Shown in pieces: positions 1,495 to 22,696 of a stretch of DNA of 32,051 nucleotides. The stretch is from the NCBI GenBank assembly GCA_040882355.1, contig JBBEBM010000033.1:1-32051 (forward strand), read 5' to 3'. The notes under the pieces are model-generated. The model was given only the letters and a program-made list of their open reading frames with translations. It was not told where the DNA came from and ran no database searches. How positions within the stretch are numbered: position 1 is the stretch's first letter; every line of letters begins with the position of its first letter. This DNA is from Dehalococcoidia bacterium. GTDB lineage: Bacteria > Chloroflexota > Dehalococcoidia > DSTF01 > RBG-16-68-14. The translations under genes were made by a program, and so were the position numbers.

Positions 1495-1848
1495 ATGATC
1501 GATACCGCCCTCGCCGAAGCCGACTACTGCTACCTGACGACGACGGGTCGGGTGAGCGGGAAGCCGCACGAGATCGAGATCTGGTTCGGGCTGCGCGGCG
1601 ACACCCTCTACATGCTCTCGGGCGGGGGCACGCGCGCCGACTGGGTGCGCAACATCAAGAAGGCGCCTGCCGTCAAGGTTCGCATCGGCGAGACGACGTT
1701 CGCGGGCACGGCGCGCATCATCGAGGGGACGGAGGAGGACGAGACAGCGCGCAGCTTGCTCGTCGAGAAGTACAGCCCGGGCTACAGCGGCGACCTCTCC
1801 GGCTGGCGCCGGACGGCGCTGCCGGTGGCCGTCGACCTCGGAGGCTAG
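1495..1848 (+). CDS. Deazaflavin (F420)-dependent oxidoreductase, nitroreductase/DDN family
   Basis: 117 aa; YLTTTGRVSGKPHEIEIWF and ADWVRNI...PAVKVRIG motifs. Confidence 0.85.
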   Translation: MIDTALAEADYCYLTTTGRVSGKPHEIEIWFGLRGDTLYMLSGGGTRADWVRNIKKAPAVKVRIGETTFAGTARIIEGTEEDETARSLLVEKYSPGYSGDLSGWRRTALPVAVDLGG

Positions 1849-2093: not shown

Positions 2094-2384
2094 CTAGTCG
2101 TCGCCGCGCCAGCCGAGACGGGTCGTCACCCGGAGATCCCCCTGCTTGGTAGGTGAAGCGACCTGCCTGGCCAGATCTTCGGCCTGACGCTCAACCGAGG
2201 GCCGCTCCAGCGTACGCTTGGCATCGTACGTGCGACGCAGGTCCTCGTTCCCCAGTACTTCATACGCCTGGTTCAGCTCCGCCACACGTTTCGGCGAAGC
2301 GCCGAAGGCGGCGCGCCAGTAGGCGGCCTCGATCTCTTTGAAACTGGCGTTTGGCGCAACGCCGATGACGCGATAGTAGTCCAA
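2094..2384 (-). CDS. J-domain-like protein 1 (HPD motif absent), C-terminal RLGW
   Basis: DYYRVIGV..AS..EI..AYWR..A / ELNQAYEVLGNEDLRRTYD matches J-domain helices I-IV; start placed at TTG 2384 behind GAAGGGAG (ORF track starts at 2402). Confidence 0.75.
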   Translation of the reverse strand: MDYYRVIGVAPNASFKEIEAAYWRAAFGASPKRVAELNQAYEVLGNEDLRRTYDAKRTLERPSVERQAEDLARQVASPTKQGDLRVTTRLGWRGDD

Positions 2385-2606
2385 CGCGATACTCCCTTCC
2401 AATGTGGATCATCTCGCAGTGACGGACGCCATGAGCCCGCCGCCGTCGAGGACCTGGCGCAGGCGTGGCAGTGTTGCCGTGGGTGGTGGTCTGGTGCGTG
2501 AAGTGCGGTAGTGCGCGCCTGCGTCGCAGGCAGGGCAACGGTCCGTCCCGCCGGGCGGCCGCTCGCCTCTAGGTCTCCATACGTTGGGCGCACGTGGGAG
2601 CGACCT

Positions 2607-2626
2607 CCTACCGTACTACCTTCGGC
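2607..2626 (-). promoter_or_regulatory. Conserved upstream element copy A (GCCGAAGGTAGTACGGTAGG), possible alternative-sigma -10 region
   Basis: 15/20 identical to 3348-3367; both lie upstream of a J-like paralog. Confidence 0.4.
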
Positions 2627-2658
2627 TGATGCGCGGAGATCTGTCGCCACGGAGGCGA

Positions 2659-3225
2659 CTACATCGCCTTCGGCCAGCCGAGGCGCCTGGTGAAGCTGAG
2701 CGAGTCGTCCGGCTCCTCGACTTGCACGTTCGCCTGAGTCTTTCGCTCCGAGGGCGCGGGCTCGGGGTTGGCCTGCGCCATCAACGGGGCCGGGGACACG
2801 TCCGCCGGCGCAGTGCGGGGCTCCTCGCGTGCGAGCTCAGCCTTCGCCTTGTGGGGTGACCCAGCGGGCGCTGGCTCAGCCCGGGCTGGTCCGTTTGACG
2901 GCTCAGGACCCGCTACTCCGACCTGCTGCTCAGCTTCGACGCGGTCCGCCGGCTGGAGCTGCGCCATCACTGGTGTCGGCGGTGCGCTTACCGGCTCCGG
3001 GCGAGGCTCCACCACGTGGCCAGCGTCCGCCCACTGGGCATCATACGCGCGCCGCCGCTCCTCGTTGTTTAGCGCTTCGTAAGCCTTGTTCAGCTCGGCG
3101 CGCTGCTCATCGGTGGCGGCGCCTCGCGCCAAACGCCAGTAGCCGGCTCCGATCTCCCGGAAGTCGGCGCTGTGCGGCACCTCGAGAACCTCGTAGTAGT
3201 CCGCGTTGTTCACCTTCAGTGCCAA
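2659..3225 (-). CDS. J-domain-like protein 2 (HPD absent) with Pro/Ala-rich linker and C-terminal RRLGWP
   Basis: DYYEVLEV..AD.REI..GYWRLA / ELNKAYEALNNEERRRAYD; start likely TTG 3225 after GGAGG (ORF track starts at 3237). Confidence 0.75.
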   Translation of the reverse strand: MALKVNNADYYEVLEVPHSADFREIGAGYWRLARGAATDEQRAELNKAYEALNNEERRRAYDAQWADAGHVVEPRPEPVSAPPTPVMAQLQPADRVEAEQQVGVAGPEPSNGPARAEPAPAGSPHKAKAELAREEPRTAPADVSPAPLMAQANPEPAPSERKTQANVQVEEPDDSLSFTRRLGWPKAM

Positions 3226-3347
3226 TGGATCCTCCAAACTGGGGCGGGGGTGAGGTGCTCTCTAGGCAGCGCCACGACTTGCCCTTGCCGGCCCTGCCGC
3301 CCCGTCGCCGCCTCCACGCACACGGCGGAGGTCGTCGCCTTCAGTTC

Positions 3348-3367
3348 CCTACCTAAGTAGCATCGGC
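3348..3367 (-). promoter_or_regulatory. Conserved upstream element copy B (GCCGATGCTACTTAGGTAGG)
   Basis: 15/20 identical to 2607-2626; GCCGAT resembles the sigma28-family -10 box. Confidence 0.4.
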
Positions 3368-3407
3368 AGGCGGGCCGCTAATCCGCTGCGCGTCCGGAGC
3401 GCGGCTG

Positions 3408-3719
3408 TCAGACGCTGGGCCAGCCGAGACGGGCCATGAGGCCGCCAACCCCGCCGGACTGAACGGTGAGCGTCTCGGCCTGGCTCTCGATGGAGGGCCC
3501 GATGAGAGCGCGCTGGGCGTCGTAGGCCCGGCGACGCGCTTCGTCGCCCAGCACCTCGTAGGCCTCGTTCAGCTCGGCGACGCGCTCGCCGGGTGCGGCG
3601 AAGGCGAGGCGCCAGTACGCCGTCTCGATCTCCCGATAGGCGGCGGTGGGCGCAACACCCAGGGCGCTGTAGTGGTCTGGCAGGGCCGGCCTGCGGCCAT
3701 TCTTGGTGGGTATGCTCAT
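3408..3719 (-). CDS. J-domain-like protein 3 (HPD absent), C-terminal RLGWP
   Basis: DHYSALGV...A.YREIETAYWRLA / ELNEAYEVLGDEARRRAYD; ATG at 3719 avoids overlap with the upstream SDR gene; 103 aa. Confidence 0.75.
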   Translation of the reverse strand: MSIPTKNGRRPALPDHYSALGVAPTAAYREIETAYWRLAFAAPGERVAELNEAYEVLGDEARRRAYDAQRALIGPSIESQAETLTVQSGGVGGLMARLGWPSV

Positions 3720-3753
3720 CGCCCTATCCAACGAAGGGAACGTCGAGGGCGTT

Positions 3754-4756
3754 TCAGTCCAGCGCTGCGAGCGCCGCATCCTCCGCCGCGTAGTCGAACC
3801 ACTCCGGCTTGCCCGTGGGGCGGTGAGCGCGCTCCCACTCGATGGCGCGGCGGAGCCCTTCGTCCCGTGAGACAGCCGCCGCGTGGCCCAGCTCATCGCG
3901 GATGCGGGTGGTGTCGCAGACCAGGTCCTGCGCGTAGTCGCCACCGGGCGGCGTCAGGTGCCCGGGCAGGCGCTCACGCGGCAGCGCCACGACACGCCCA
4001 GCCCGCGGCGCGGCCCAGCGACTCGACCCACCCGGCATAGGTGAGGGCTTCCGCGTCACCGACGTTGTAGACGCGGCCCGCCGCGCGCTCGTCCGTCGTC
4101 GCCAACGCAATCGCCGCCGCGACGTCCCCGACGTAACCGCGCGTCCAGCGCCTGCGCGCCACGTCATCCGCGAGCACGATCGCCGGGCGGCCGTCGTCCA
4201 TCCGTTTCAGATCGATGAAGAGCCGGTGCTGGTAATCGGCAGGGCCGTAGACCATCGGCAGGCGGAGCACGGTGCCCGCTACGTCCGGGCTGCTCATCAC
4301 CGCGCGCTCGACGAGGAGCTTCTCGTAGTCGTCCAGTCCGCGCCCCTCGCCTCGATACGGGTAGAGGCGCTCGCGCAGCGGGGCGTCTTCGGTGAGGGGG
4401 ACTGGTTCCGGCGGGCCGGGCTCCGTGCCGTGGAAGCGCCCGTACGCGCGGTAGACGTCCATGCTGCTGACGGCGACGATCCGCAGGGGGACGCCGCGGA
4501 CGGCATCCAGGGCGATACGCGCCTCACCTTCGGTGTACGCCGCCATGTCGAGGGCCACGTCCGGCCCGAAGCGCCGGACCGCATCGCGGAGGTCCGGTAG
4601 GCGCGCGCGGGCGCCGTGCAGGTGCTCGACTTCCGATGGCAGGCCGGCCTCGGTCTCGCCTCGATGGAAGACAGCGATGCTATGGCCGAGCCCGACCAGC
4701 CTTCGAACAACCGGCGGGCCGATGAAGCGAGTGCCTCCGATAACGAGGATGCGCAT
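3754..4756 (-). pseudogene. NAD-dependent epimerase/dehydratase (atypical SDR), split by an apparent frameshift near 3997
   Basis: MRILVIGGTRFIG Rossmann start at 4756, plus SSMDVY, YEK, LRLPMVYGP and YNVG; the expected C-terminus (RVVALP...DTTRIRDELG...AIEWER) is in another frame (track ORF 3754-4167). Could be an assembly error. Confidence 0.8.
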
Positions 4757-4830
4757 GGCGGATGCATGGTAGCGCGGCCTCGACCATGCCGGCGGGGTAG
4801 GCGAAGCCGCCCTGCGGTACCGCGACGTAT

Positions 4831-4873
4831 CTTGACAGCTTGCTTCCCTTGACAGAATATGCTGTGCTATTAT
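4831..4873 (+). promoter_or_regulatory. rpsA promoter region: two CTTGACAG copies and extended -10 TGcTATTAT
   Basis: TTGACA at 4832-4837 and 4849-4854; TG 4865-4866 plus TATTAT 4868-4873; AT-rich island between divergent genes. Confidence 0.55.
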
Positions 4874-4964
4874 GGCGAAGCTGCCCCGGCTTTGATCCGA
4901 CGTACCCCCCGTCACGGCAGGCGAGCCGGCCGCACCCAAAGACGCCAAGGAGGACCGCGCTACG

Positions 4965-6936
4965 TTGACCACTGATTCGCAAGCTGAGACGCCGGTTGGA
5001 GGGGTCGGCGAAGAGAGCTCCGACATGGGCGCCCTGCTCGAAGGGAGTCTCGACTACAAATCCGCTGAGCGCGGCGAGATCGTTGAAGGCACCGTGATGA
5101 GCCTGGAGCGCGAGGGCGTCCTCGTCGACGTCGGCTCGAAGTCCGAGGGCATCATCCCGCGCAACGAGATGCACTCCCTGGGTCCGAACGCCTCGCTCGA
5201 GCCCGGCGAGAAGGTGCTCGTCTTCGTCATGCAGTCGGAAACGGGCGAGGGCCAGATCCTCCTGTCGATCGACAAGGCGCGCGGCGAACGCGGTTGGCGC
5301 ACGCTGCAGGACCGCTTCGAAAGCGGCGAGAGCTTCGAGGGACAGGTGACGGGCTACAACCGCGGCGGGCTGCTCGTGAACGTGGAGGGTGTGAACGCCT
5401 TTGTGCCGCTGTCGCAGCTCGTCGGGCTGCGGCCGGAACGCGGCGAGAACAACGGCGGCAACAGCCTGGCCGACGCGGTCGGGCGCACGCTGCGGCTGAA
5501 GGTGATCGAGATCAACCGCCGGCGCAACCGTGTGATCCTGTCGGAGCGGGCCGCGCTGCAAGAGTGGCGCATGATCCAGAAGGAGCGCCTGATCCAGGAG
5601 CTGCGCGAGGGCGACATCCGGCGCGGCCGGATCAGCAGCGTGCGCAACTTCGGCGTTTTCGTCGACCTGGGTGGCGCGGACGGCCTCGCGCATCTCTCCG
5701 AGCTTTCGTGGGAGCGTGACAAGTCGCCGATGGAGCTCTTCAAGGTAGGCGACGAGGTCGACGTCTTCGTGACCAAGGTCGACCCGGAAAACAAGAAGAT
5801 CGCCCTGAGCCTGCGGCTGGCTAACCCGGGGCGGTGGGACGAAGTCGTTTCCAAGTACCAGGAGGGGCAGGTGGTGCCGGGCCTGGTGACGAAGGTCGTC
5901 ACGTTCGGTGCGTTCGCGCGCATCGAAGGTCCTGTCGAGGGCCTGATCCACGTCTCGGAGCTCGTCGACCGGCGCATCGGCCACCCGAAGGAGGTCGTGC
6001 GCGAGGGCGATCTGCTTCCGCTGAAGATCGTGCGCATCGAGCGCGACCGGCACCGGCTGGGGCTAAGCCTGCGTCGCGGACGCGAAGACGGCGAGACGAT
6101 GGGCTTCGTGTTCACCGACGGCGGTGAGGTGCTCTCCGTGCCGGACGACATCCGCAAAGAGTTCGAGGAGCGCGAAGGGCCGATCTCGCAGCTCACGCGG
6201 ACCTTTGAAGAAGAGCAACCCGCCGCGGCCGTATCCGAAAGGCCGCCGACGGCTGTGGAACAAGCTGCCCCTGAAGCCGCGGCCCCCATACTGGAAGCGC
6301 CCGCCGCCGAGGTCGCGCCAGCCGTCGAGGTGCGGGAAGAGCCGGCGTCCGCTATGCAAGAAGCGTTCGCTCAGGCTGGAGCGCTGGCGACTGAGGAGCG
6401 GAGCGCAGAAACCGATGCGGCTCCTGAGGCCGTTGCCGGGGCTGAGGTCGAGGCCGATGCCGCCACGGACGAGGCTGCCGCTCCCGCCGTCGCGGAGGCG
6501 ACGGCCGATTACGAGGAGCCGGCCGNNNNNNNNNNNNNNNNNNNNNNNNNNNNNNNNNNNNNNNNNNNNNNNNNNNNNNNNNNNNNNNNNNNNNNNNNNN
6601 NNNNNNNNNNNNNNNNNNNNNNNNNTCGCGCAGGCTGCGGCCGACAACGAGGAGCCGGCCGTCGCGCAGGCTGCGGCCGACAACGAGGAGCCGGCCGTCG
6701 CGCAGGCTGCGGCCGATCACGAGGGGGGTCCGATCGCAGCAGCGGTCGATGGGCCGCCTCCGGAGCTGATGGAATCACCACCCGAACCTGTGCCCGCTGC
6801 GGAGGCGCCTGAGGGCGCAATCGCGAGCGACGAAGCTGCCGGCGAGACAGCGGCTGAAGAGCCGGACGCAGTGCCGGTCGCCGAGGCCTCCGGGCAAGCC
6901 GGAGGCGAGGAGGGAGAGGAGGCTCAAACCCTGTAA
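4965..6936 (+). CDS. rpsA: 30S ribosomal protein S1 (four S1 domains) with a long acidic Ala/Glu/Pro C-terminal extension; spans a 100-N gap
   Basis: VLVDVGSKSEGII, NRGGLLV, FGVFVDLGGADGLAHLSELSW and FGAFARIEGPVEGLIHVSEL S1 repeats; SD AAGGAGG before TTG; after the gap the same 12-aa repeat continues in the 6124-6936 frame to TAA. Confidence 0.9.
6490..6724 (+). repeat. 36-bp coding tandem repeat (VAQAAADNEEPA)n in the S1 tail, flanking an assembly gap
   Basis: Unit TCGCGCAGGCTGCGGCCGACAACGAGGAGCCGGCCG at 6626 and 6662, partial copy at 6698, degenerate copy at ~6490-6525. Confidence 0.85.
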
Positions 6937-7017
6937 CCGTAGGCAGCGCTCCAGCGTTCTGGACTTCGCAACGAACCGTGTGATAAGGTGAAAATGGAGT
7001 TCTAGGGAGTTGTTTTG

Positions 7018-9486
<2,469 letters not shown>

Positions 9487-19018: not shown

Positions 19019-22000
19019 CTAGGGTTCGCTCGTATTCGGGTTGATCGGTTCCTGCGGCGGGTGCGGCTCGGCGCACGTGCTGGTGTGGCGGCCGTACACG
19101 AACTGCACGTCCTTGATGTCGACGTCGCCGTCGCCGACGATCTGGCCCGACGGCTCCAGGTCGAAGCGCTCGTTGTAGAGCAGCGAGCCGAGCGTCACGC
19201 CCCAGCGGAACGCGAGGAGCTGCTGGTCACGAATGTCGACGGCACAGTCTCCGTTGACGTCGCCTTCCAGCCAGCGGATGGTGAGGTCGGCGTCCTCACA
19301 GCGGTCGCCCTTGATGGGGTGACCCTGCAGGTCGGCCAGGTTGCAGCCCACGTTGAGGATCTCGACCACGATCCCGTTCTCCTGGTTCGCGCGGATGATT
19401 GAGTAGAGCTCCGGTTGCGGCCGGACGATCACTCGCGCAAGCTCCAGCGAGGTGCTTACCGGGCCGTCCTTGCCCACCACGACGCAGCCGATCCGCGCTA
19501 AGCCGTCCGGCTGCAAGCCCTGGTCCTTGTCGTCGATGAAGCAGGTCATCCCCGTCTCGGTGGGGTACTGGCCCGGCTCGATGTTCACGCACACCAGGTC
19601 CTCATCGAACAGCACCTCGAACTCGAAGCCGCCGATGATCTGGGTCTCGGTCGGGTCCTTCGGATCGGGCGTGCTCGGCAGGTTGGTGAGCCGGTGCTCG
19701 AAGACAACCTTGTTCGTGCTCGCCTCGCAGGTGCTGGGTGGCAGCTTCACGCCCTGGGCCGTCAGGAACAGGTTCGCCTGATCCGGGGACTTCACGTGCG
19801 AGGGAGAGCCGGTCGGCGTTGGCTCGCCCGGCGTCGCCGTAGCTCCGCCTCCTGGGTCCGTGGCCGTGGGTGTCGCCGTCCTGGTTGCGGTGCGCGTCGC
19901 CGTGGGCTGCGGCGTGTTGGTGGCCGTTGCCGTCGCCGTCCGGGTATTGGTCGGCGTTGCCGTTGGCTCCGGGGTATCGGTCGGCGTTGACGTCGGCGTG
20001 CGCGTGTTCGTCGGGGTCGCTGTTGGCTCAGGCGTATCGGTCGACGTGGGTGTCGGCGTGCGCGTGTTCGTCGGGGTCGGCGTGTCCGTCGCCGTCGGTG
20101 TCGGTGTCGGCGTATCTGTCGAGGTGGGAGTTGGCGTGCGCGTGTTCGTTGGGGTTGGCGTATCGGTCGCCGTCGGCGTCGGCGTGCGTGTATTCGTCGG
20201 AGTCGGCGTATCGGTCGCCGTCGGCGTCGGGGTGCGCGTCTTCGTCGCCGTCGGCGTATCGGTCGGCGTCGGCGTGCCCGTCGGGGTATTGGTCACGGTG
20301 GGCGTCGGCGTGCGAGTCGGCGTGTCCGTCGGCGTGCTCGTGGGCGGCGGCGTCAGCGGCGTGTCCGTTGGGGTCGGCGTATCGGTCGGCGTCGGGGTGT
20401 CCGTTCCCGTGGCTGTCGGAGTTGGCGTGCGCGTAACGGTAGGCGTCGGCGTGCGCGTCGCTGTGGGCGTGTTGGTGCCCGTGTTCGTCGGGGTGGGCGT
20501 CCGGGTCGGCGTGTCTGTTGGGGTCGGTGTGTTGGTACCCGTGTTCGTGGGCGTGGGGGTCCGCGTCGGCGTGTTCGTCGGGGTCGGCGTGTTCGTGCCG
20601 GTGTTGGTCGGAGTGGGTGTCCGCGTGGCCGTATTCGTCGGCGTCGGCGTGTTGGTGCCGGTGTTGGTCGGCGTAGGCGTGCGCGTCGGCGTATCCGTCG
20701 GCGTCGGCGTGCGCGTGTTCGTCACCGTCGGCGTCGGCGTGCGCGTGTTCGTCGCCGTCGGCGTCGGCGTGCGCGTGTTCGTCGCCGTCGGCGTCGGCGT
20801 GCGCGTGGCTGTCGCCGTCTTCGTCGGCGTCGGCGTCGGCGTGATGTTTCCGCAGCCGAGGTCGAGCTCTGTCAGACCACCCGAGTTTGCGTACACAACC
20901 TCGATGCGCCGTACGCCGCCGATGTTGACGTTGAACGTCTGGACGCTGCCGTCAGCGCCAATAGGCATCGGCACGGTCCCGAGCGATACGTTGCCGCTGT
21001 CGAAGAACTCCGCGTATGCGTTCGGGTCCGCGTCGTGGTCGACGAAGACGAACGAGTACACGATGCGGTCGTGGTCGAAGGTGTAGATCTGGACGCCGCC
21101 AGCCACGCTGTCGTTAGGGGAGTCTACGAGGCCGTTCGCTGGCGACGTGTCGGTGACGTTTTCAGGAATGATCGAGATGTTGCCGACGTCCACCTCCAGG
21201 TCCGGGTCGGCGGTGCCCGTCTGGAACGTGTCGAACACGATCGTCGTGTTCGGCCGACCGTTGTTGGCCAGCGCGGAGAGGTGGATGCCATCGGCGGCGT
21301 ACTGCTCCGCCAGGATGGTCCCGTGGGGCAGGCCGTCGTAGTCCAGCACCAGCGGCACGCAGGAGCCGAGGGTCGGCGTCGGCGTGAAGGTGGGCGTCCG
21401 AGTCGGCGTGAAGGTCGCCTGAGGCGCGACGGTGTTCGTTGGCGTGGGCGTCCGCGTCCGTGTCGCCGTCTTGGTCGCCGTCTTGGTTGGTGTCGCGCAG
21501 ATCGCGTTCGCGATCTGGTCGAAGAGCTGACTGATGTCGTCGGGCGAGCCGTTGACGTAATGCGCCGGCGACGAGGCCAGGAGCTGGTTAAGCGTGGCGT
21601 CGTCGTTGGAGCTTTGCGAGTAGCCGATGACGTAGACCTGGGTACCGGCGAGCTTCGTCTGGGCCGCCCAGTAGACCGAGTAGACGTCAGCGCCGTCACC
21701 GCTGAAGTAGGTGTCCTGCGTCACGACACCGCTGCGCCTCACCGCCAGCTCGTCACTGTGGCCGCTGACGAAGACCGGAGCGCTGCCGGGATTGGGCCCG
21801 TTTGTCGGATGCACCTCGAACGTGCCGTTGTTGTTGGCGTCCAAGTACAGCGTGCCGTCGATGATGCGGAAGTTGGCTGGCGGGTTGGGCACAACGCCGT
21901 CGAAGTTGTAGTCGTCTGAGTTGTTCAGGGAGCCGCTGTCGTTCGCGTCCAGCTCGTTGATCGGCGAGCTGTTTGAGCGGTTCACCGTCCACAGGCCGTT

Positions 22001-22696
22001 GACCACGATGAAGTCGGCCGTGGAGTCGCCACCGGGAAAGTCGACGCTCAGGTCGTCGGCGGAGTCGATGATGCCGTTGTCGTTCACGTCGATGTGGAAG
22101 TCGTTCTCGCTGCCCGAGTCGTCGATGTCGAGCGGCCGGTTAGAGCCGCCGTCGGAGAGGATCACCATGTAGTCGTTGGTGTCGGGATCGCTGTCGGGCT
22201 CGGTCGGCAGCTCCAGTTGGAGCTGGGCGAGGTTGATGGCGCGGCCGACGTTCGTGTTGCCCAGGGCGTTGTAGCCGGTGATGTCGCTGCGCAACGGCAC
22301 GGCGTTGGTGGTCAGCGTCTCATCGGTTGTCGCGCTGCCGCTGGAGAAACCGATGAGCGCGATCTGGTGAGGAGTCAGGTCATTGTCGCTTGGGCCGCCG
22401 GCGAAGGCGTCGATGAAGCCGATGGCCGCGGTCCTGGCGTTCTCGATCTTGTTCGCCTGGTCGTCCATGCTGCCAGAGTGGTCGAAGACGATGGCGATAT
22501 CGACGGGATTCGCACAGCTCTCCTCGCCGGTAGCGCCGGCGAGCTGTCCGTTTGCGGAGAGGAGGGTGACGAGCGCGCCAACCGCCACGACGAGCGCTCC
22601 CACGGTGAGGCCAAACCACCCGACGCGCCGCCAGAGCGCGCCCGCATAGGTGATGCGCGATTGATCCTTGCGCTCAAAGCGAGAGTCAAGCCCCAA
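19019..22696 (-). CDS. Large secreted surface protein: signal/TM - vWA domain - beta-rich domain - Thr/Pro stalk - cohesin-like domain - dockerin-like domain
   Basis: Hydrophobic N-terminus; MIDAS DHSGS, TNVG and ILSDG; ~340-aa TP-rich tract; [14 protein letters not shown] cohesin-like strand; [13 protein letters not shown]...GDGDVDIKD duplicated Ca-binding loops. Confidence 0.85.
19810..20845 (-). repeat. Thr/Pro-rich coding repeats (units such as [10 protein letters not shown], 30 bp)
   Basis: Near-exact 30-bp repeats GTCGGCGTCGGCGTGCGCGTGTTCGTC(G/A)CC at ~20697-20810, degenerate elsewhere. Confidence 0.9.

Follow-up and report, generated by a model that had tools for sequence, protein, structure and literature searches.

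J-domains are defined by HPD-dependent activation of Hsp70, HPD being the His-Pro-Asp tripeptide in the loop between helices II and III. To our knowledge, J-like proteins that lack HPD have been studied mainly in organelles. Here we describe three such proteins from an uncultured Dehalococcoidia bacterium. They are encoded by a tandem array of genes, J1, J2 and J3, in a stretch of 32,051 nucleotides (positions 1 to 32,051 of contig JBBEBM010000033.1, assembly GCA_040882355.1), which we call the window. All three keep the J fold, have lost HPD and, judging from their substitution pattern, are under selection, which places them in the J-like class.

The contacts between a J-domain and DnaK are described in sections of two papers (PMC8215388, PMC7289447). 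H33, P34 and D35 touch the DnaK linker, the substrate-binding domain and R167. In every tested system that these sections cover, substitutions in HPD abolish the stimulation of ATPase activity. The basic residues 22, 26, 27, 48 and 51 position the J-domain on acidic residues of DnaK. The 21-residue C-terminal extension of AtcJ from Shewanella oneidensis binds AtcC with a dissociation constant of 7 nM, as reported in part of PMC6715715. The mitochondrial Pam16/Tim16 (Magmas) is described as having a J-type fold without a functional HPD and as acting by binding, not by Hsp70 stimulation. ARC6/ZipN (Ftn2) of chloroplasts and cyanobacteria carries a prokaryote-derived J-like domain without HPD, which is described as a membrane-tied interaction module.

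The J-like fold and the HPD loop

The domains of J1 (2223..2381), J2 (3040..3201) and J3 (3519..3677), all on the minus strand, match the Pfam DnaJ family PF00226 with E-values of 2.1e-9, 3.7e-9 and 8.1e-10, or 37-39 bits against a cut-off of 27.8. In each protein, profile positions 1-63 are covered by just 53-54 residues. A sequence search of solved structures with the J-like proteins returned 25 J-domain chains at E <= 0.01, and in three alignments to solved J-domains, 10 residues are missing from the stretch that covers the HPD loop and the beginning of helix III. Compared with the two canonical DnaJs of the same genome, 8-9 residues are gone from J1-J3, covering the HPD tripeptide and its flanks. 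The structure prediction that the initial annotation proposed gives a J-type core: in the AlphaFold2 model of J1, built on a family alignment of 31 sequences, residues 8-60 have a predicted local distance difference test (pLDDT) score of 84-90. Helices are placed at residues 9-13, 21-32, 37-50 and 53-81 (numbering of the 102-residue form), with a shortened loop between helices II and III. When this model was compared with the Protein Data Bank by Foldseek, the top matches were J-domains, namely the CbpA J-domain (3ucs), Tid1 and Thermus thermophilus DnaJ. The single-domain J-domain entries among the top matches had target-normalised TM-scores of 0.49-0.79 and root-mean-square deviations of 1.1-2.0 Å. 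Pfam, AlphaFold2 and Foldseek thus agree on a four-helix J-domain fold, in which the tripeptide of the helix II-III loop is missing.

The basic face of helices II and III is lost as well. In the residue register used here, HPD occupies positions 33-35 of the genome's own DnaJs. Positions 22, 26, 27 and 48 are basic in both of these DnaJs, one of which has its helix III register offset by one residue. J1-J3 are basic at position 27 only, and position 26 is an invariant Trp. Helix II reads EIEAAYWR in J1, EIGAGYWR in J2 and EIETAYWR in J3, exactly as the initial annotation had it, and its view that the canonical features for DnaK stimulation are gone, in the loop and on helix II, holds. Since both HPD and most of the basic docking positions are absent, J1-J3 would be unable to trigger ATP hydrolysis by DnaK in the canonical way.

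The genome, which is 94% complete, contains 10 stretches that match PF00226, nine of them above the cut-off. HPD is kept in two of the 10, both class-A-like DnaJs on a single contig (C60). Besides J1-J3, HPD is missing from five further J-type domains, on contigs C47, C4, C51, C70 and C29 (loci L005, L007, L008, L265 and L271). Six of these eight HPD-less domains have Tyr-Trp in helix II: J1-J3 and those on C47, C4 and C29. Two larger HPD-less proteins have a loop of full length in which HPD is replaced. By its sequences, the repertoire looks like an evolutionary series, from canonical domains through domains that have the Trp and have lost HPD to those with a shortened loop.

The genome encodes one full-length DnaK of 630 amino acids, whose R167 and N170 are invariant among 18 relatives. 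Two further Hsp70 matches are short (20-43 bits over ~100-130 profile positions), and no second Hsp70 was seen in this genome by profile search. J1-J3 could in principle activate DnaK in a non-canonical manner, as co-chaperones that couple to it without HPD. Such an activity is very improbable: the sole full-length DnaK retains R167, there is no second Hsp70 in sight of the profile search, and the loss of stimulation upon HPD substitution extends to all of the tested systems in the part of PMC8215388 that treats them. As a separate observation, the DnaK proteins of the order share a near-invariant end, V-E-G-E-[FY]-R-E-V, behind a variable acidic tail (DnaK alignment, locus L123).

Family signature, selection and the C-terminal tail

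A profile search of 1.84 billion cluster representatives returned 74 proteins at E <= 1e-10. Among the best 150 representatives, 63 were parsed as single-domain proteins of at most 200 amino acids, and 39 of these are of the short-loop Trp type; the remaining 87 are larger, multi-domain or unparsed. Loop spacing is bimodal. By hand-made patterns for helix II and helix III, the loop is short (12-18 residues) in 60 of 111 parsed J-type stretches, and HPD occurs in none of these 60. The 26 stretches that do contain it all fall in the class with loops of 20-33 residues. A Trp follows the helix II Tyr in 55 of the 111 stretches, again never together with HPD. In the alignment of 31 family sequences, no variation is seen at Y28, W29, N44, A46 and R56, and the C-termini line up at the tail motif. 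Because canonical J-domains also conserve Y28, N44, A46 and R56, the Trp and the short loop are the only marks that belong to the family itself.

Close homologs exist for each paralog. J1 has five besides itself (74-81% identity) and J3 has four (71-78%). J2 has four with 57-72% identity over at least 70% of its length and one partial homolog (76% over 29%). HPD is missing and Tyr-Trp present in every one of the 23 close homologs, so the Trp that had been noticed as conserved among the three copies is conserved in all of these as well, and 20 of them have RLGW or RLDW as their ending. In a maximum-likelihood tree (30 sequences), J1-type proteins form a clade supported at 100/100 and J2-type proteins one at 98/90; proteins of the J3 type fall together with J1 at 94/92. 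Tail endings go with type in this tree, every type having one of its own. Homologs of different types were found on contigs of identical size, with 7071 (J1 and J3), 6106 (all three), 1753 (J1 and J2) and 1182 bases (J2 and J3), which suggests that the genes sit together elsewhere too. The deletion is a single event that the whole family inherited. The initial annotation was right that the same loss marks three diverged copies, but these represent one ancestral deletion, retained under selection, and not three parallel ones.

Tandem duplicates of small genes often decay, and J1-J3 might be redundant J-protein duplicates without a function of their own. Their features speak strongly against this. 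The reading frames are intact and are preceded by Shine-Dalgarno-like sites. The ratio of nonsynonymous to synonymous substitution rates (dN/dS, Nei-Gojobori method), calculated for 55 codons from the start of the domain, lies at 0.13-0.43, below 0.45 in 10 of 10 pairs, three among the paralogs and seven between relatives. Linker and tail give 0.15-0.81. Orthologs specific to each copy occur in other metagenomes; they are 71-81% identical and keep the tail. Decay is extremely improbable on these data, and the ratios point to functional genes under purifying selection. The earlier proposal of a selected function would have been undermined by close homologs with HPD together with dN/dS near 1; HPD was found in 0 of 23 homologs, dN/dS in the domain reaches 0.43 at most, and the proposal stands.

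All three proteins end in R-L-G-W followed by three or four residues: RGDD in J1, PKAM in J2 and PSV in J3. This C-terminal motif is a feature absent from the initial annotation. It is encoded on the minus strand at 2109..2120 in J1 (R95, L96, G97 and W98, invariant across the three paralogs), 2674..2685 in J2 and 3420..3431 in J3. The paralog alignment, the codons and a DNA repeat family (D3) all mark the same positions. The linker between domain and tail is rich in Pro, Ala and Glu and has ~25 residues in J1 and J3 and ~115 in J2. In the AlphaFold2 model, the last 20 residues of J1 are coil with pLDDT below 50 and are not docked on the domain. A conserved motif that lies behind a disordered linker and is undocked in cis has the hallmarks of a short docking motif. 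Other members of the family have other tails. Besides the RLGW-P/R type of the window, we found KL-x-W-[YH]-L-x, RLG-x-x-F-x-W and a longer-loop variant that ends in FRP[DEG]. A member of the KLxW type is predicted to have the same core (pLDDT 86-91) with a one-residue turn between helices II and III; residues 88-97 of its tail are modelled as a short helix apart from this core (pLDDT 51-56).

The tail might instead serve as a C-terminal membrane anchor, amphipathic or Trp-based, that tethers the J-like domain. J1-J3 would then be the soluble-to-peripheral counterparts of those Trp-type J-like proteins that, in the same genomes, are anchored by transmembrane segments. Transmembrane-like segments do follow the HPD-less domain in the proteins on C47 and C4, in a relative's protein (G021), all three with Tyr-Trp, and in the protein on C51, without it. 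The predicted tail helix of the KLxW subfamily would fit such an anchor, as would the variant of family f5, which has a Phe/Leu/Val-rich segment of 13-17 residues ahead of its FRP[DEG] end. Against this, the last 11 residues have hydrophobic moments of 0.05-0.72, which do not stand out: compared with the other windows behind the domain in the same protein, they rank first in only 3 of 20 proteins. Wimley-White sums of the J1-J3 tails are -0.2 to -1.7 kcal/mol, and these tails, with Gly and Pro in them, are modelled as coil. We regard a peripheral tether as quite unlikely for the proteins of the window.

The array, its neighbors and its distribution

The three genes are co-oriented open reading frames on the minus strand, at 2094-2402, 2659-3237 and 3408-3719, the last with a frame that is open up to 3944. 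Open reading frames, Pfam matches and alignments bear out the initial description of three J-like paralogs in one orientation, including its coordinates and its readings of the sequence. A Shine-Dalgarno-like purine run precedes each likely start. J1 (2094..2384) would start at a TTG at 2384, downstream of GGAAGGGAG, and encodes 96 amino acids with the tail RLGWRGDD; this form equals the called product P0001, and the longer frame extends to 2402. J2 (2659..3225), with 188 amino acids and the tail RLGWPKAM, would likewise start at a TTG (3225), downstream of GGAGGA, in agreement with product P0163; its longer frame extends to 3237. For J3 (3408..3719), which has 103 amino acids and ends in RLGWPSV, the ATG at 3719 is the start of product P0157 and of four orthologs of 103 amino acids. 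The other two products are 45% and 55% identical to J1. At the DNA level, the copies are 65-72% identical in a 93-base core and 71% identical in the 28 bases that encode the tail, values low enough to indicate an old triplication.

Contigs from four DNA runs of one study cover the array region with zero differing letters. In one run (X1), which may be the source of the sequence, the whole region is spanned by a single contig, and in a second run (X2) a contig of 1641 bases spans 2678-4000. The tandem layout is therefore real and not an artefact of assembly. An Rfam search of the window gave no match. A promoter scan gave 0 sites. A terminator scan gave one, on the plus strand, where chance alone would give 0.7.

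The array lies within a conserved gene block. Its flanking genes, which encode an epimerase, a DUF2277 protein and a GNAT acetyltransferase, are directly adjacent to one another in all five relatives of the same family, and the syntenic stretches of those five contain no J-like gene, no S1 gene and no clpC. A sixth stretch, from family f2, matched DUF2277 only. With the block intact and the array missing in 5/5 relatives, the array is best seen as an insertion in this lineage. A gene for an F420H2-dependent quinone reductase-like protein (1495-1848, plus strand), between those for the acetyltransferase and DUF2277, also has no counterpart there in the five relatives and thus appears to be a second lineage-specific insertion. 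The epimerase gene upstream of J3 (3754-5026, minus strand) is split in two frames. Its N-terminal part (3974-5026) matches Pfam Epimerase, and its C-terminal part (3754-4167) lies in a different frame; in the five relatives both parts form one continuous frame. The frameshift may reflect a pseudogene or an assembly indel, and the contigs of the DNA runs contain no variant at this site.

The initial annotation placed the array ~3.3 kb from clpC in a region rich in proteostasis genes. The distance is correct, as clpC (7015-9486) starts at 7015, 3.3 kb from J3. The window also contains tig (trigger factor), clpP, clpX and a gene for an HtrA-like protease, so the description fits this window; it does not extend to the family. 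At 14 J-like loci of relatives the surroundings vary and clpC adjoins in none, nor does it occur in the five syntenic blocks, and neighborhood thus gives no grounds for clpC as a partner. DUF2277 was rejected too. It occurs in 29/41 relatives, among them 8/8 f2 genomes, where the J-like family was not found, and never beside a J-like gene. In genus g2, all five genomes have a single J-like gene directly upstream of a cyclophilin gene on the same strand, 45-130 bases apart, and this cyclophilin-type prolyl isomerase has an N-terminal extension of ~113 residues (loci L109, L112, L114, L016 and L017). Cyclophilin is present in 41/41 genomes and adjoins the J-like gene in g2 only. An IMPDH-like gene is a convergent neighbor at four loci, all of family f5. 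Neither was retained as a partner. In a single case (locus L113 of genome G008), a J-like gene is divergent from, and adjoins, the first gene of a nuo-type NADH dehydrogenase operon.

Two other genes of the window have unusual sequences. The gene for an S1 RNA-binding protein (4965-6812, plus strand) encodes a long acidic C-terminal extension, has a 36-base tandem repeat in 2.8 copies at 6626-6724 and is interrupted by a run of N at ~6520-6620. An open reading frame of 1225 amino acids with an N-terminal VWA domain (19019-22696, minus strand) contains ~1 kb of imperfect repeats with units of 30 and 60 bases (19860-20840); these repeats explain why GC and AT skew are extreme there.

To count the family, we used a profile of seven sequences at E <= 1e-12, a threshold that separated the small HPD-less open reading frames from canonical DnaJs. 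Matches were found in 20 of the 93 genomes of the order. Besides the genome of the window, they were in 8/15 genomes of family f1 and 11/36 of f5, with 0/21 in f2, 0/18 in f3 and 0/2 in f4. A looser threshold added one f3 genome and none in f2 or f4. Among these genomes, three copies occur only in that of the window. The search for copy number and synteny that had been suggested recovered the family, and at the 14 loci of relatives it gave no synteny with clpC. At the level of the class, the family-wide profile of 31 sequences gave matches in 120 of 201 genomes; this is not a count of the family, since canonical DnaJs reach 50-57 bits with that profile and are not separated from the family. 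Scans of genome and metagenome contigs with the wide profile likewise returned mostly canonical J-domains and few members of the family (among them L036, L050 and L154-L158); the contigs that carry the closest orthologs were absent from these results. The best-matching named records are metagenome-assembled genomes of Chloroflexota and Dehalococcoidia. In the ESM Atlas, Chloroflexota is the commonest phylum of the nearest cluster, where the phylum is known for 4 of 91 members. These distributions characterize a conserved, lineage-restricted family, assigned by sequence, in uncultured Chloroflexota.

The distribution bears on whether J1-J3 may act as a brake on DnaK or DnaJ. The J-like domain could dock on the J-site of DnaK, or on the J-domain of DnaJ, without triggering hydrolysis. 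The basic-hydrophobic tail would lie in the substrate groove of DnaK, and the protein would act as a competitor of DnaJ or keep DnaK in a single state. The retained fold is consistent with this, and so is a genome with one canonical DnaK and two HPD-bearing DnaJs. The basic-Leu-x-Trp tails also resemble the basic-flanked hydrophobic peptides that are typical of DnaK clients. Yet J1-J3 have lost the entire HPD loop and all but one of the four basic docking positions, and the family is unlinked to dnaK or dnaJ at every locus examined. DnaK was found in 21/25 genomes searched, including those of f2, f3 and f4, in which the J-like family is absent or, in f3 and at the looser threshold, present once. 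Precedents for such contacts do exist: Pam16 is the J-like partner of Pam18, as stated in portions of PMC3237618 and PMC3806816, and CbpM blocks the J-domain of CbpA, according to a portion of PMC8215388. J1-J3 themselves have no match to the Pam16 family in Pfam at E <= 10. On balance, a brake is an unlikely role for them.

Proposed two-site adaptors and the comparison with known systems

The reading that we favor, with a probability of roughly 0.45, is that J1-J3 are Hsp70-uncoupled adaptors with two binding sites, a Trp-bearing J-like module and a tethered docking peptide. The HPD-less Trp face, the conserved but undocked tail and the example of AtcJ are what commend it. The Ala/Gly-rich face of helix II with its Trp would be the first binding surface, and one of a new kind. 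The Trp is presumably exposed, as suggested by the role of position 26 in canonical domains. The C-terminal peptide would provide the second docking site, as in AtcJ. The paralogs differ in linker length and in the last three or four residues. They arose by an old triplication, which came to be inserted in a conserved block of genes.

Several points weigh against two-site adaptors. The tail is not universal: a hand-made pattern of a C-terminal basic-hydrophobic-x-aromatic motif is matched by 19 of the 39 short-loop Trp-type representatives, and several proteins stop straight after the domain. No neighbor is conserved across the family in the loci examined. The dN/dS values come from 53-55 codons per pair, and some dS values are saturated (> 1). 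Finally, interfaces between J-domains and Hsp70 are evolutionarily variable, as discussed in part of PMC7289447, and J1-J3 may for this reason bind DnaK without stimulating it.

A broader conjecture, which we consider doubtful, is that with the Tyr-Trp J-like domain the J fold has been put to a new use throughout the lineage of Dehalococcoidia-type Chloroflexota. The Trp face would be a new binding mode. It could clamp DnaK without activating it, the domain sitting on the J-site and the tail in the substrate groove, which would brake or park the chaperone. Alternatively, it could form an Hsp70-free module that binds peptides or helices. The three paralogs would then be a graded or hetero-oligomeric set.

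A full-text literature search returned no paper on the J1-J3 family. HPD-less J-like proteins are already known as a class, and what is new is this family. It serves as a compact example from bacteria, in which a deleted loop goes together with one invariant and presumably exposed Trp, a tethered C-terminal motif and three paralogs that have been retained together. A partner, if found, would show either a role of the J fold that is freed from Hsp70 or a DnaK that is held without firing. The proteins are small and should express easily, which makes the question testable although the organism has not been cultured. The family would also correct the current automatic annotation as CbpA or DnaJ.

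J1-J3 share the four-helix fold of the canonical DnaJ/CbpA J-domain (PF00226; PDB 3UCS, 4J7Z and 5NRO), including the helix I Tyr, the helix II Ala-Tyr, Leu-Asn-x-Ala-Tyr-Glu-x-Leu in helix III and Arg-x-x-Tyr-Asp in helix IV. They differ from it in the missing HPD, a loop that is shorter by 8-10 residues, the loss of the basic II/III face and the Trp at position 26. Unlike DnaJ and CbpA, they have no G/F, zinc-finger or C-terminal client-binding domain and comprise only 96-188 amino acids. The CbpA model (NCBIfam NF007618) gives 24-30 bits against a cut-off of 403, with no match to DnaJ_C, and the name 'curved DNA-binding protein CbpA' assigned by JGI is therefore an over-annotation. The equivalog models of AtcJ, CbpA and DnaJ together score J1-J3 at 15-32 bits against cut-offs of 150-619.

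Pam16 is described as pairing with the J-protein Pam18 at a translocase. The Pfam search described above does not place J1-J3 in its family. ARC6/ZipN resembles the transmembrane-anchored Trp-type J-like proteins of this genome. As described, the ARC6/ZipN proteins are large, multi-domain membrane proteins of the division machinery, in contrast to J1-J3, which are small and soluble and have another signature.

AtcJ differs from J1-J3 in having HPD, and its own model (NCBIfam NF050028) gives 19.4 bits for J1 and 18.1 for J3 against a cut-off of 150 and is not listed for J2. The partner of the AtcJ tail is a product of the same operon, whereas the neighbors of the J1-J3 family differ between genera. 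Both are very small proteins that consist of a J-type domain and a short C-terminal extension, and in AtcJ this extension docks the partner. By this analogy, AtcJ would be the closest architectural precedent for the proposed action of J1-J3.

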